Shown one piece after another: positions 24,672 through 39,466 of a DNA stretch of 64,000 nucleotides (positions within the stretch are counted from its first letter, which is position 1; each line of letters opens with the position of its first letter). The translations under genes and the position numbers were made by a program. The DNA comes from Candidatus Margulisiibacteriota bacterium (GTDB lineage Bacteria > Margulisbacteria > Marinamargulisbacteria > SXXA01 > SICP01), in the NCBI GenBank assembly GCA_009691415.1, contig SICP01000001.1, positions 40,446-104,445 of the forward strand, written 5' to 3'. The notes under the pieces were generated by a model. It had not been told where the DNA came from, did not search any database, and saw nothing but the letters and a program-made list of their open reading frames with translations.

Positions 24672-26160
24672 CTATAACTCCTTTTTTTCTATAAAGTACG
24701 GTGCTTCCGGCTTGTCCTATTTTTTCATAGGCCGGATCGTGGACCAGTTTTTCTAACCAGGCCGCATAAACTTCTGGGCCTTCAGGTTCATACGAATCTG
24801 GGCCCAGCCACAACGCCTTTAACACACGCGATTTTCGACCTGCTTTCCATAGGCGATGTATAGAGTCGCTTGTTTTCTCTGATGCCGGAAAATCGGGATC
24901 TATCGTCTCCACAAATACATAATTTGCCTGAGTATACTCACCCGGAAACAATGTAATGGGTTCTCTATAGTTGAGATGCACCAAAAACTTTCTACTAACA
25001 ACAACAGATTCTTTAGCGGGAATTTGGTGCATTAAGCGATGAATAGCCAGCGTATGACGACTGATATACAAATTACGAGATTCTAAGCCTATAAACGTTA
25101 GGCAATTTAGAACAATGAAAAAAACAAAAATCCATTTAATGTATTTTCTAAACTTTGAATAGGATGCTTCAGTTAAGTAACTCTTTAGAAAATCTAGGCC
25201 CAGAACAGACGAAAAGAAAAAAATAGTAAGCACAGGGAACAGATGGTGACTATAAAATTTATAGAAATTGGTATCTCCCGCCAAAAAACATTGCGCAATT
25301 AATCCCAGAGCCAGGTATGAATAAGAAGAAAAAAATGGCAAAAATGCTAATGGTAGTACCAGCAATAAAAAATTCAAGAGTTTGTCGACAGTAATAATTT
25401 GTGTAGCCGCATAGAGTGGTCGCGTTACTACCGTATGCACCATATCTGGAACCGAATGCCCTAAATTGGTGTAATACCCTGCAAATTTGTAATGGGTATC
25501 TGGTGAAAAATGAGGAATAAAAATGGTGAGCGCATACCAAGACATTACAGCAGAAAATCCAATGATCACGATGCCCATGACATATCTTTTTCTAAAAACT
25601 ATCAGATAAAGCCCTACCATTGCAGCAATCACAACGGCCGTTTCTTTTAAAAATGGCAGACATACACTCAGCAAAAAAATGGGCCTGTATTTTTCTTTAT
25701 ACAGAAAATACATGATCCAAGACATGACACAGGCTATAACCGTTTCACCGTAGATATAGAGAATATTGGCTTCTCGAAATCCATAGTTTGCCATCATCAA
25801 GATAAAGGCGATTACTACTGCTTTTTTCCCAAATTTTTCGTTTGCGATCCATAGAATTGGCAGCATAGTTAGACATAACAAAAGCGCCATTAATGCAAAC
25901 TGCCAAATGGGTGTCGGAAAGATAAAATAGAGCAGGGAAATCAAATAAAAGAACGGGTAAAAATGCTCAGAAAAATAATTGCGATGTAGCATATTGAGAT
26001 ACAGGCCTTTCCCCTGTGTCACGTTCCAAATGGATTGATCTCTGTAGTACAAATCAAAAGACGCGGTCTGAAATCCCAAATGCATGACTAATTTTTGTGT
26101 AAAGAAAAAAAAGAATGCTCCTAATAATAACGCCCCAATCAGAGTTAGCCGCTTACGCAT
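24661..26160 (-). CDS. Polytopic membrane protein (DUF2079-like, GT-C-fold-like)
   Basis: 499 aa with about 12 predicted TM helices. The N-terminal ...FDLYYRDQSIWN... motif resembles the DUF2079 family from memory. Confidence 0.55.
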   Translation of the reverse strand: MRKRLTLIGALLLGAFFFFFTQKLVMHLGFQTASFDLYYRDQSIWNVTQGKGLYLNMLHRNYFSEHFYPFFYLISLLYFIFPTPIWQFALMALLLCLTMLPILWIANEKFGKKAVVIAFILMMANYGFREANILYIYGETVIACVMSWIMYFLYKEKYRPIFLLSVCLPFLKETAVVIAAMVGLYLIVFRKRYVMGIVIIGFSAVMSWYALTIFIPHFSPDTHYKFAGYYTNLGHSVPDMVHTVVTRPLYAATQIITVDKLLNFLLLVLPLAFLPFFSSYSYLALGLIAQCFLAGDTNFYKFYSHHLFPVLTIFFFSSVLGLDFLKSYLTEASYSKFRKYIKWIFVFFIVLNCLTFIGLESRNLYISRHTLAIHRLMHQIPAKESVVVSRKFLVHLNYREPITLFPGEYTQANYVFVETIDPDFPASEKTSDSIHRLWKAGRKSRVLKALWLGPDSYEPEGPEVYAAWLEKLVHDPAYEKIGQAGSTVLYRKKGVIDEK

Positions 26161-37369: not shown

Positions 37370-39466
37370 ATGAATGGATTCCTTTTATCATCTATATTTG
37401 CATATATATTAGATTTATTAATTTGTGTTCTGGTTTTATGGCATGGTCATAAAAAAGCGGCTAACGTTATTTTTTCAGGATTTGTGTTCTGTTTATCGTT
37501 TTGGACACTCGGAGATTTTTTCTTTTATTTTCTACCCTCTCAATCTCCTGGGCATTTACTATGGGGTGTAAAAATTGCACATATAGGAGCCTTGTTAACT
37601 CCAGCATTTTACACTCATTTTGTTATTGCGCTTACAGGCTTCACTATCTCTACTTATGCCATTGTCTTCCTATACCTGTTTTCTTTTACTATGGTTTTTA
37701 TAAATATATATACCCCGCTAGTTATTCAGGGTGTCTCACTAAACCAACAAACTCTAGAACTAACCATAAATTCGGGTCCTCTTTATACAGTCTTTCTTAT
37801 ACAGATCGTTATCCTTTTAATATTTTGCTATTACAGACTAATTCGCACATACAAAGACAGTCATGGCTTAGTAAAAGAACAAATGCAGTATTTTTTTGTA
37901 GCAACTATTTTCATTCTTGGTTGTGTCGTTTTTTATTTTCCAGCTATGCTAGGATTATTTGATATACGACTAGACAATCTCTGCGTTGTTACTTATTTCT
38001 CTATTATTGCTTACGCAATAACGAAACACGATCTCATGGATATCAGAGTAATTATCACCAAAACTACAGCCAACGTAATCGCCATTTTAATCGTACTCAC
38101 AACTTCCTTCAGCATTTTCTTCCTTACCGAAAATAAAACAACGCTCTTTATATTGTCCGCAATAACGCTTATTTTCTGGAGCCTAAAATTCCAAGACTTC
38201 CGCCTCTTCCTCCAAACTACGTTAGAAAAAAAATTCCTCGAAAATCGCTACAACTACGCTGTGGTTATCCAACGGTTTGTCGATGGTTTTGGCCAATGCT
38301 CTGAGATTGGTGATGTGGCTCAGGTTTTGAAATCTACTTTTAATGATGAAATGGAAATTGCGGATGTGAGGGTTTACTTTCCGGAGTTTTATGAAATGAC
38401 GTTTCGGACTTCGGGGACTTTTTCGGAACTTATTACTGACGCTGATCAGACAACTCATCCCCCACTTGCCTCTGACACAAACTGGATACAAGCACTTGTC
38501 GAACAGAAAACAGTTTTGATTTCTTCTGAATTTGATGCGCTTACGGATTTTGGCTTGGCCGCAGCTTTGCCGTGTTTTGTAGAGGGAAATCTGGTGTGCT
38601 TGGTATTGCTTGGTAAGAAACTTTCTGAGGATGGGTTTAAGCCTGAGGATGTGTCTTTGTTTTCTACGATTGCATCTCAGATTCCGGCGGTTTTGGATCG
38701 GATTCATCGGTCTAGGGCTTCGGTAGAATTGAATTTGGCGCAACGTATTCAAACCGAAATCTTGCCGAAGACACCAGAGATTCCGGGGTTGGAATTGGCG
38801 TGTTATATGAAGCCTGCGGATGAGGTGGGTGGGGATTATTATGATGTCGTTGTAGCGGGTGAGTATTCATGGGTGTTGTTGGGGGATGTGACGGGGCATG
38901 GATTGGGGTCTGGGCTTGTGATGTTTATGGCGCAGAGTATTTTGACGTCTATTCTGCAGACGAGGGATGCGATTGAACCAGCTAACTTGAACTATTTGGC
39001 GAATCAGATTTTGTATAAGAATTTACAGCGGTTGGATGAACAATTGCCGATGACGTTTGTGAGTTTGCGTTTTCATGAGGGGCGGTCGTTTACGGTGAGT
39101 GGGTGTCATGACAACTTTTTGATTTATCGGGCAACTTCGCAATCGATTGAGATGTTGTCGCTGGATCATTTTGCGTTGGGCATTGGGTTTTCGGATTCGT
39201 TTGTGCGCGAGGATTATACGCAGTCGGCTTATACTTTGGCGGTTGGGGATGTGATTTTTATGGTGACGGATGGGATTACGGAGGCGTTTTTTGGGGGGAA
39301 TGTGACGTTGGAGCAGTATGGGGAGGAACGGTTGAAGGGGTTATTCTTGAAACATGCAGCCGGGAGTGCGGAGGATGTGAAGGTTGCGTTGATTGCGGAG
39401 TTGGATGAGTTTACGGGTGGAATTTATCATGATGACGTTACGTTTATCGTTGCGAAGGCAGTTTAG
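37370..39466 (+). CDS. Membrane sensor PP2C (SpoIIE-type) phosphatase: 7TM sensor module, GAF-like domain, PP2C
   Basis: The N-terminal 7TM region is clearly homologous to that of the kinase 33293..35263 (LWGVKIAHIGALLTPAFYTHF versus LWGLKIANIGIILTLPFYVHF; YAITKHDLMDIRVIITKTTAN versus YAITKHDLMDITILISKTTAN). The C-terminus has AQRIQTEILP...GGDYYD...GDVTGHGLGSGLVM...TDGITEA...HDDVTFIV. It starts 2 nt after the synthase stop. Confidence 0.85.
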   Translation: MNGFLLSSIFAYILDLLICVLVLWHGHKKAANVIFSGFVFCLSFWTLGDFFFYFLPSQSPGHLLWGVKIAHIGALLTPAFYTHFVIALTGFTISTYAIVFLYLFSFTMVFINIYTPLVIQGVSLNQQTLELTINSGPLYTVFLIQIVILLIFCYYRLIRTYKDSHGLVKEQMQYFFVATIFILGCVVFYFPAMLGLFDIRLDNLCVVTYFSIIAYAITKHDLMDIRVIITKTTANVIAILIVLTTSFSIFFLTENKTTLFILSAITLIFWSLKFQDFRLFLQTTLEKKFLENRYNYAVVIQRFVDGFGQCSEIGDVAQVLKSTFNDEMEIADVRVYFPEFYEMTFRTSGTFSELITDADQTTHPPLASDTNWIQALVEQKTVLISSEFDALTDFGLAAALPCFVEGNLVCLVLLGKKLSEDGFKPEDVSLFSTIASQIPAVLDRIHRSRASVELNLAQRIQTEILPKTPEIPGLELACYMKPADEVGGDYYDVVVAGEYSWVLLGDVTGHGLGSGLVMFMAQSILTSILQTRDAIEPANLNYLANQILYKNLQRLDEQLPMTFVSLRFHEGRSFTVSGCHDNFLIYRATSQSIEMLSLDHFALGIGFSDSFVREDYTQSAYTLAVGDVIFMVTDGITEAFFGGNVTLEQYGEERLKGLFLKHAAGSAEDVKVALIAELDEFTGGIYHDDVTFIVAKAV

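Follow-up and report, generated by a model that had tools for sequence, protein, structure and literature searches.

The window analyzed here is a 64,000-nt stretch of contig SICP01000001.1 from a Candidatus Margulisiibacteriota bacterium (the best GTDB match of its DnaG, at 40% identity, is in a Margulisiibacteriota metagenome-assembled genome, MAG), and it contains a locus in which an alpha-oxoamine synthase (AOS) is encoded together with membrane sensors. On the forward strand, the enzyme operon starts with o65, a conserved 65-aa open reading frame (ORF; 35456-35653, recognized by codon conservation against a close relative, L027), followed by the AOS itself (35697-37367, Aminotran_1_2 at residues 205-543) and by a phosphatase (37370-39466) composed of a seven-transmembrane module (7TM; HisKA_7TM), a GAF-like segment and a PP2C/SpoIIE domain (Pfam). 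Divergently from this operon, the reverse strand encodes three sensor kinases with Pfam-defined domains: HK1 (33293-35263; HisKA_7TM, GAF-like linker, HisKA and HATPase), its degenerate paralogue HK2 (32112-33284; polytopic N-terminus, HisKA and truncated HATPase) and the hybrid kinase HK3 (30290-32182; HisKA_7TM, HisKA, HATPase and REC). A variable filler segment (27937-30297) separates these genes from the other half of the locus; it holds a lipoprotein gene (27937-28338, reverse strand), a 271-aa IS66 DDE transposase fragment (28606-29421, reverse strand), a 131-aa ORF and an XRE gene (HTH_3; 30043-30297, forward strand). Beyond it, a 68-aa protein with a predicted helical-hairpin fold and an H-box-like motif, HEFKAPL (27623-27829, forward strand), is transcribed divergently from an NtrC-type response regulator (26153-27523, reverse strand; REC, Sigma54_activat at 228 bits and HTH_8 in Pfam). 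The regulator is the first gene of an operon that continues on the same strand with a DUF2079 membrane protein (24661-26160; Pfam 1.4e-34) and ends with a phosphoesterase of the phospholipase C/acid phosphatase family (23397-24671; NCBIfam scores below cutoff). Each of the two divergent control regions contains a palindrome with the core TGTTGCA-N12-TGCAACA: palindrome 1 matches it exactly at 27571-27596, and in palindrome 2 (35352-35389) the core (35358-35383) is part of perfect 16-bp arms around a 6-nt spacer. The ORFs and domain matches agree with the gene list and coordinates of an earlier note on this DNA, which had proposed a signaling circuit with CqsA/CqsS-LuxU-LuxO-like logic, and so does the translational coupling of the phosphatase to the synthase, the PP2C start lying 2 nt after the synthase stop.

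The enzyme is an intact member of the alpha-oxoamine synthase superfamily (pyridoxal-phosphate, PLP, fold type I). Its Aminotran_1_2 match (Pfam, 5e-46) starts only at residue 205; the intact synthase core spans residues ~170-556, is ~40% identical to active enzymes and keeps the PLP lysine K404, the stacking H297, the D369/H372 pair and the carboxylate-binding R527, all invariant in alignments. No NCBIfam equivalog cutoff is reached by this protein, be it that of bioF (TIGR00858, 355 against 426), KBL (NF005394, 346.8 against 460), SPT (NF047600, 325 against 640; NF047599, 317 against 500), ALAS (277 against 339) or the CqsA/LqsA type (NF005526, 230.9 bits against 428), the last ranking only ninth among the AOS models. 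Solved structures (PDB) give the same order, with Thermus AONS/KBL at 260 bits, a bacterial SPT at 254 and CqsA, the weakest of the major AOS structure matches, at 122. In a neighbor-joining tree (391 core columns, 200 bootstraps; references E. coli BioF and Kbl, further BioF, Kbl and HemA sequences, Thermus AONS/KBL and two SPTs, without CqsA, LqsA or JqsA, so that the comparison with CqsA/LqsA is that of the hidden Markov model and PDB scores), the enzyme sits in a nine-member clade of its own (87% bootstrap) outside KBL (87.5%), BioF (72%), ALAS (100%) and two SPT clades (100% and 78%).

Placement against BioF and KBL had been set beforehand as a test, and the enzyme nests in neither clade. 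Identity as BioF, KBL or SPT was rejected because the scores fall below cutoff and the respective clades exclude it; for the first two, the lack of bio and tdh genes among the neighbors scanned points the same way, and sphingolipid genes are likewise missing there, as the earlier note had stated. Membership of the CqsA/LqsA family does not stand (231 against 428 for NF005526; 122 bits against 260 in the PDB comparison). The synthase is also a rare protein: only three database proteins are more than 41% identical to it and none exceeds 47%, and a GTDB scan found no close relative. With a third-position GC content (GC3) of 0.235, compared to 0.33-0.50 for the neighboring genes, the gene is compositionally foreign. 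It shares with o65, for which no family match was found, a 15-nt initiation motif, ATGCATCCGGGGGGA (35437-35451 and 35680-35694), that is kept in L027; a G-rich ribosome-binding site seems to be typical of the enzyme operon.

The ~200 residues that precede the Aminotran_1_2 domain set the enzyme further apart. A profile of residues 1-192 found 12 proteins among 1.84 billion representative proteins, all of them AOS proteins of ~520 aa or AOS fragments, which bears out the earlier description of a novel N-terminal domain; the extension is private to a rare AOS clade. AlphaFold2 predicts a disordered leader (1-69) and an H-H-H-beta-beta unit at ~72-135 (pLDDT 75-87) whose Foldseek matches are the winged-helix regulators PadR, MarR, BlaI and ArsR, with E-values of only ~0.03. 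The putative recognition helix of this unit, ETEHEILNLIESL, is acidic in all members, which would suit protein-protein contacts or regulation better than DNA binding. A sister AOS clade (P0030, P0067 and P0114; 100% bootstrap) carries instead an N-terminus with an RxxxR...DxSxxG PilZ-like pattern; at 19.1 bits against a Pfam cutoff of 22.5, a firm PilZ assignment was rejected. Monophyly of the three sensor-linked AOS clades receives 2.5% bootstrap.

What the N-extended enzymes have in common is their neighborhood: a polytopic 7TM-type sensor adjoins the AOS in all 12 of the 12 N-extended loci examined, which form the whole sample for this linkage. In the window and in two other loci the next gene is a 7TM-GAF-PP2C protein, the latter two being full-length orthologues of the window phosphatase (L002, 37% identity; L017, 34%). 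Two further loci (L001, L025) have a 7TM-kinase after the AOS, plus REC-PP2C or REC proteins, and in two with a PilZ-like AOS the enzyme is followed, optionally after a reductase, by a membrane kinase and a REC protein (L013:8001-12683; L015:6001-11885), these REC proteins being 44% identical to each other and having an uncharacterized 290-aa output domain. The remaining arrangements are kinase, methyltransferase, 7TM protein, AOS, kinase (L011, Margulisiibacteriota MAG JBFWNS010000001); 7TM kinases, FadL-like porin, AOS, 7TM protein (L016); and AOS followed by truncated multi-TM ORFs (L012, L024, L026). By comparison, when JGI metagenomes were scanned with the alignment of the clade, only generic AOS proteins without the extension were returned. 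In the 80 loci of this kind that served as controls, no kinase adjoins the AOS, and homologues of the 7TM-GAF, PP2C and methyltransferase proteins are all missing; restricted to the controls with enough downstream sequence, the difference is 12/12 against 0/51 (Fisher test, p = 4e-13). The 418-aa AOS proteins of Desulfobacterales, which have no extension, cluster with Bacteroidetes-type SPT, and their neighbors are radical-SAM and SDR genes, not sensors. The neighborhood survey that the earlier note had called for thus confirms a linkage to sensors (12/12 against 0/80), but the kinase-to-regulator relay put forward there as the enzyme's partner gives way to the 7TM module of the phosphatase as the conserved partner. 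Accessory genes of sister loci, for a FadL-like porin in L016 and for an OleD/HpnA-like reductase in L015, would fit a long-chain lipophilic product.

Two side observations concern these clusters. In L011 (6993-11120) the AOS is flanked by 100% identical direct repeats of a sensor gene, spaced 3213 bp apart (300 nt displayed, 305 aa matched), such that the upstream 7TM protein and the downstream kinase share their middle segment; the AOS may have been inserted or duplicated into a 7TM kinase here, or the arrangement may be an artefact of assembly. Three unrelated loci have a small XRE-type HTH gene close to their AOS/sensor cluster (L001:15047-15322, L011:13233-13871 and 30043-30297 in the window), and the XRE gene of the window may therefore be no mere passenger.

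The most informative comparison is with L027, which was found through a homologue of the 68-aa protein. From the ADSL gene to the 68-aa ORF, gene order is the same in both, with protein identities of 97% for ADSL, 91% for the phosphoesterase, 90% for the DUF2079 protein and 88% for the regulator. The filler segment is variable, as the earlier note had surmised, since none of the lipoprotein, IS66 and XRE genes is present at this position in L027, where genes for an SNF2 helicase and a Fic protein are found. On the other side of the kinases, DNA identity is ~95-97% through palindrome 2, the promoter region, o65, the ribosome-binding site and nine codons of the synthase (MKKTAEKSR), and collapses after approximately codon 10 of the synthase ORF; the L027 ORF that follows the nine shared codons encodes a methyltransferase-like protein, not an AOS, and this protein is 42% identical to the methyltransferase of the L011 AOS locus. 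The o65 copies differ by 15 synonymous and 4 non-synonymous codons, and o65 is consequently considered a real gene. The phosphatase mirrors the switch. P0136, whose contig has the source and the length (37,567 bp) of the L027 contig and is almost certainly one and the same, is ~26-27% identical to the window PP2C protein before residue ~277, that is across the 7TM module, and ~90-91% identical after it, in the GAF-PP2C part; P0135, from another contig, shows the same mosaic (7TM ~26%, GAF-PP2C ~90%) with a switch near residue 200. Given a shared 5' flank, a replaced enzyme and 7TM module and a shared output, the variable unit is the enzyme plus the 7TM module, a strain-variable cassette at ~35727-38198 (forward strand) that extends from approximately codon 10 of the AOS to about residue 277 of the phosphatase, its right-hand junction being seen at the protein level only. 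Enzyme and 7TM module vary together between close relatives, as in pherotype loci; with conserved flanks and output around a co-divergent enzyme gene and sensor domain, the region has the appearance of a polymorphic locus of the pherotype type. Homologues of the slot methyltransferase (35-39% identity) also occur on 146 plasmids, mostly of Rhizobium, and on Rhizobium leguminosarum plasmid pRle248e (L108, 5962-6999) one of them is divergent from a gene for a GGDEF-EAL protein, an observation that is suggestive only.

The output side of this mosaic and the kinases are related. The catalytic domain of the phosphatase is of the SpoIIE type (Pfam 4e-28), and HK1 is 32% identical to the phosphatase over ~460 aa that cover the 7TM module and the GAF-like linker, in agreement with the earlier note that one kinase and the PP2C protein carry a common sensor module. 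The match of the linker to GAF is sub-threshold (E 0.019), and a firm assignment was rejected for that reason. HK1 has an L027 orthologue (77% amino acid and 82% DNA identity); the transmitter and receiver of HK3 (residues 255-629) are 82% identical to HK814 of L027, while its sensor part is non-orthologous. HK2 is absent from L027. In alignment with HK1 it has lost ~58 aa through an in-frame deletion that removes the G1 and F boxes and leaves the DHp histidine intact, and Pfam HATPase_c is matched over the first 25 positions only; normal ATP binding would accordingly not be possible. Three tandem membrane kinases are present as initially described, and HK3 is a hybrid, but the middle one is degenerate.

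In the other half of the locus, the regulator gene overlaps the DUF2079 gene by 8 nt, which in turn overlaps the phosphoesterase gene by 11 nt; the phosphoesterase scores 196 bits with acid_phos_Burk and 172 bits with PC_PLC (NCBIfam), both below cutoff. The regulator has the REC-AAA+-HTH architecture expected of the LuxO-type sigma-54 activator that had been proposed, but it scores 298 against a cutoff of 800 with the LuxO model (NF041946), passes no NCBIfam equivalog, and its sigma-54 contact loop (residues ~226-231) reads GAFTDA, not the canonical GAFTGA. Matches to a -24/-12 sigma-54 promoter pattern occur at chance level and none lies in the control regions; a scan for sigma-70 promoters and terminators gave no more than shuffled expectation, no Qrr-like or other regulatory RNA was found (Rfam gives only 4 tRNAs), and none of the other AOS/sensor loci examined has a sigma-54 activator next to it. 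The core TGTTGCA-N12-TGCAACA is found exactly twice in the 64 kb, compared to ~0.24 occurrences expected even with 2 mismatches allowed. The claim that the same palindrome occupies both divergent control regions is thus upheld, core included, though site 2 is longer than described, with 16-bp arms at 35352-35389. From palindrome 1 it is 48 bp to the ATG of the regulator and 27 bp to that of the small ORF, a position that appears operator-like, not enhancer-like. In L027 it is kept with one arm change, and the core of palindrome 2 is identical at 26/26 positions. Palindrome 2 also scores as a bidirectional hairpin; a terminator role was rejected because the flanking genes diverge. The other AOS loci lack the palindrome, which therefore belongs to the chassis of this lineage and not to the AOS family. 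Its half-sites equal the LuxO half-site TTGCA/TGCAA with a different spacing (PMC10328515), and because of that spacing the likeness is only a lead.

The 68-aa ORF has a strong GGAGG Shine-Dalgarno sequence, and two other contigs encode homologues of its product (81% and 78% identity) in which the core is invariant. AlphaFold2 predicts a two-helix hairpin (pLDDT 84.7) whose top Foldseek matches are kinase DHp domains, including that of GacS (TM up to 0.74-0.82, E-values 0.4-3). The H-box motif HEFKAPL and the hairpin are thus as the earlier note had it, but the DHp likeness itself finds no HisKA homology by Pfam, PDB or phmmer, the fold matches are non-significant, and Pfam yields no HPt match for what is a predicted two-helix hairpin. 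On the predicted fold, the protein could be a DHp phosphotransferase or a DHp-binding kinase inhibitor of the RetS type. Regulator, HK1, the transmitter and receiver of HK3, the 68-aa protein and the palindromes persist in L027 without the AOS; by analogy, they might form a LuxU/LuxO-like relay conserved only within this lineage, which is speculative.

We propose, with a probability of about 0.5, that the core of the locus is a two-gene synthase/receptor module, formed by the winged-helix AOS and the 7TM sensor module, that occupies a slot in a conserved chassis. The AOS would condense an amino acid and an acyl thioester into a small molecule of the alpha-aminoketone type, probably lipophilic; the 7TM module of the co-translated GAF-PP2C phosphatase would recognize this product or a derivative, and recognition would change the output of the phosphatase towards a phosphoprotein. 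The slot would be embedded in a lineage-conserved two-component chassis made of HK1, HK3, the NtrC-type regulator with its DUF2079/phosphoesterase operon, the DHp-like protein, o65 and the palindromic operator. Since this chassis and its palindromes are conserved whichever enzyme fills the slot, they probably control expression of the slot, and the chassis may also respond to the molecule. An enzyme that co-varies with the ligand-binding part of an adjacent receptor is the signature of cognate signal/receptor pairs, as in agr and comQXP, and the best reading of the same signature here is that the AOS product is recognized by the 7TM module of the PP2C protein. A signaling role of the product, its binding by the 7TM module, contact of the regulator with the palindromes and any route of phosphotransfer are all inferred from comparative data. 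More tentatively, N-extended AOS proteins at large (winged-helix, PilZ-like and other fusions) could make ligands for HisKA_7TM modules, an AOS or a methyltransferase together with a 7TM module then forming an exchangeable pherotype-like cassette and a new class of communication; this generalization is possible, and we hold it with less confidence than the reading of the locus itself.

Several points weigh against a cognate synthase/receptor pair. Signal chemistry and ligand binding are predictions from comparative genomics, and the enzyme might instead be what the sensor controls, with the sensor acting first. The N-terminal domains private to these enzymes (a winged helix in the window, PilZ-like in a sister clade) resemble regulatory inputs to the enzyme more than parts of a free-running synthase. 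No STAS or anti-sigma partner for the phosphatase is present among the ORFs scanned, a scan of the window that was not exhaustive. P0135 is a full-length PP2C orthologue at 71% identity, yet the database holds no AOS more than 47% identical, and the strain of P0135 probably lacks this AOS. The tree contains no CqsA/LqsA reference sequence. Finally, GC content was rejected as an argument for 7TM transfer: every sensor is GC-poor where it codes for TM segments, and composition alone is therefore no proof.

The regulatory look of the N-terminal domains leads to an explanation that we consider rather unlikely, namely that the locus controls lipid or envelope biosynthesis: the AOS would catalyze the first step of a sphingoid-like or aminolipid pathway, and the 7TM proteins, by sensing a lipid intermediate or the state of the membrane, would control the AOS via its N-terminal domain, a homeostatic function rather than one between cells. 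Such domains are indeed specific to the sensor-linked AOS clades, bacterial SPTs (254 bits) are among the closest solved structures, sister loci contain a long-chain-type reductase, a FadL-like porin and, in L011, a PAP2 gene, and the regulator operon encodes DUF2079 and phospholipase C-type phosphoesterase proteins. However, neither SPT clade includes the AOS clade and the enzyme scores below the SPT cutoffs (325 against 640), no further lipid-pathway genes are in the operon, and neither replacement of a housekeeping lipid pathway by a methyltransferase in a strain 88-97% identical elsewhere nor co-variation with a hyperdivergent sensor module would be expected. The full CqsA/CqsS-LuxU-LuxO analogy, in which the kinases sense the AOS product, HK3 signals through the 68-aa protein to the sigma-54 regulator and the regulator binds both palindromes to close an autoinduction loop, is unlikely. 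It accounts for the presence of all components and their joint retention in L027, for the conservation of both palindromes (site 2 at 26/26 positions) with half-sites equal to that of LuxO at a different spacing (PMC10328515), and for a predicted 68-aa hairpin whose best fold matches are DHp domains, including GacS. It is at odds with a chassis that persists in L027 without the AOS and with AOS/sensor loci elsewhere that adjoin no sigma-54 activator; the regulator fails the LuxO model and reads GAFTDA for GAFTGA, -24/-12 matches are at chance with none in the control regions, Rfam shows no regulatory RNA, the 68-aa protein has no detectable HisKA or HPt homology, palindrome 1 lies operator-like at 27-48 bp from both start codons, and HK2 is degenerate.

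Two further explanations concern the enzyme itself. MocR regulators are winged-helix domains fused to a fold-type-I PLP domain, and the winged-helix AOS could similarly be a trigger enzyme or a MocR/GabR-like regulator with the winged helix as its DNA-binding part, whose target might be the palindromes, and the AOS fold as its effector sensor. The predicted H-H-H-beta-beta winged helix (72-135, pLDDT 75-87) with its PadR, MarR, BlaI and ArsR matches agrees with this; the modest Foldseek E-values (~0.03), an acidic recognition helix in all members, a core with all catalytic residues in place and ~40% identity to active enzymes, a PilZ-like and not DNA-binding domain in the sister clade, and the absence of the palindrome from other winged-helix AOS loci make it very unlikely. 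Least probable of all, to the point of being nearly negligible, is an ordinary metabolic AOS (BioF or KBL) that stands beside signaling genes by chance: the bioF and KBL models do give the best scores (355 and 347 bits), but both are below curated cutoffs, the enzyme is outside both clades and without bio/tdh genes nearby, sensors adjoin it in 12/12 loci against 0/80 controls, and the gene is absent from a near-identical relative.

Other genes of the window deserve mention in their own right. The PP2C gene is directly followed (39581-41388) by an ORF of 150 aa, which weakly matches the C-terminal part of acylglycerol kinase, and by a convergent gene for a MATE efflux pump, a possible exporter, although nothing ties the pump to the locus. 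On the other side (21579-22960), the gene for a 275-aa soluble SpoIIE/PP2C phosphatase overlaps that of a Sfp/HetI-type 4'-phosphopantetheinyl transferase by 4 nt; this pair is kept in L027 (96% and 89% identity), and no carrier protein was seen nearby. Three leucine-rich-repeat proteins are encoded at 15784-17202, 17734-19587 and 41360-42112, and the pattern TGCCAGCTTCGTTGCA, found at 16210 and 18160, suggests that the first two are recent paralogues. A 389-aa Fic/DOC adenylyltransferase and an ORF6N/Rha-type phage regulatory protein, encoded downstream of rpoD and a tRNA (45447-48272), may be the remnant of a mobile element.

If a cognate synthase/receptor pair is correct, the cassette would plug into a conserved GAF-PP2C output and promoter, which would create pherotype-like diversity across signal chemistries, and the exchange of enzyme and sensor module as one unit would be a modular route by which signal/receptor pairs diversify. 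It would also provide the first candidate source of a ligand for a subfamily of HisKA_7TM sensors, an orphan sensor family for which no ligand is reported in the reviews naming the domain, and AOS-based signaling would no longer be confined to the CqsA/LqsA family, nor its receptors to kinases, since PP2C phosphatases would be among them. In o65-AOS and the 7TM-GAF-PP2C protein, a testable pair would then be available from a lineage without cultured relative. Should the lipid or envelope function be true, the architecture would still be new, with sensor-regulated aminolipid synthesis and regulatory domains fused to the AOS.

Among known systems, the window shares with LuxU/LuxO and Spo0B-type relays a hybrid kinase and an NtrC-type regulator, and with RetS-GacS a hairpin that could act as a DHp phosphotransferase or DHp-binding inhibitor (top fold match 7n0e); it differs from all of them in that no HPt fold, sigma-54 promoter or small RNA was found, the LuxO model failed, the loop reads GAFTDA and no link to an AOS exists outside the lineage. 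Phosphatases of the RsbU/SpoIIE/SiaA type resemble the window protein in the SpoIIE-family catalytic domain behind sensory modules, but here the ORFs scanned nearby include no STAS/anti-sigma partner, the score with the SiaA model is below cutoff (38 against 700), and input comes through a 7TM-GAF module that has a genetic tie to an enzyme. Functionally closest is alpha-hydroxyketone (AHK) quorum sensing by CqsA/CqsS (Vibrio), LqsA/LqsS/LqsT (Legionella) and JqsA (Janthinobacterium), where an AOS-superfamily PLP enzyme is likewise encoded beside polytopic sensors without a large periplasmic domain and where CqsS senses CAI-1, binding its ligand in the transmembrane domain (PMC3285556). In contrast, the window enzyme is outside that family and has a private winged-helix extension, it is constantly paired with a HisKA_7TM-GAF module, the output coupled directly to it comes from a PP2C phosphatase instead of a kinase, and there is no HPt protein. 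A survey of Candidate Phyla Radiation (CPR) and DPANN genomes with CqsA/CqsS profiles also came upon AOS homologues that adjoin putative sensor kinases in uncultivated lineages, with 51 cases of CqsA-homologue/sensory-kinase synteny in CPR genomes read as a possible complete AHK-type system; N-terminal winged-helix or PilZ-like fusions, PP2C outputs, the HisKA_7TM module and replacement of a cassette between strains are not described in it (Bernard et al., 2020, PMC7567580). The general idea is less new for that report, while for winged-helix/PilZ-like AOS fusions, the HisKA_7TM-GAF pairing, the PP2C output and cassette replacement no description was found in the literature. In agr of staphylococci and comQXP of Bacillus, the signal gene and the sensor domain of the receptor are hypervariable and co-vary, and flanks and cytoplasmic output are conserved, which is the same mosaic structure as in the window cassette; those systems vary peptide signals within one enzyme family, whereas the slot described here accommodates an AOS or an S-adenosylmethionine (SAM)-dependent methyltransferase, and its output is a PP2C phosphatase. 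For the methyltransferase allele of L027, the precedent needed is PhcB/PhcS of Ralstonia, in which a methyltransferase makes methyl 3-hydroxy fatty acid signals that are sensed by a membrane kinase, a likeness in function that shows how a SAM-dependent methyltransferase can serve as a signal synthase.

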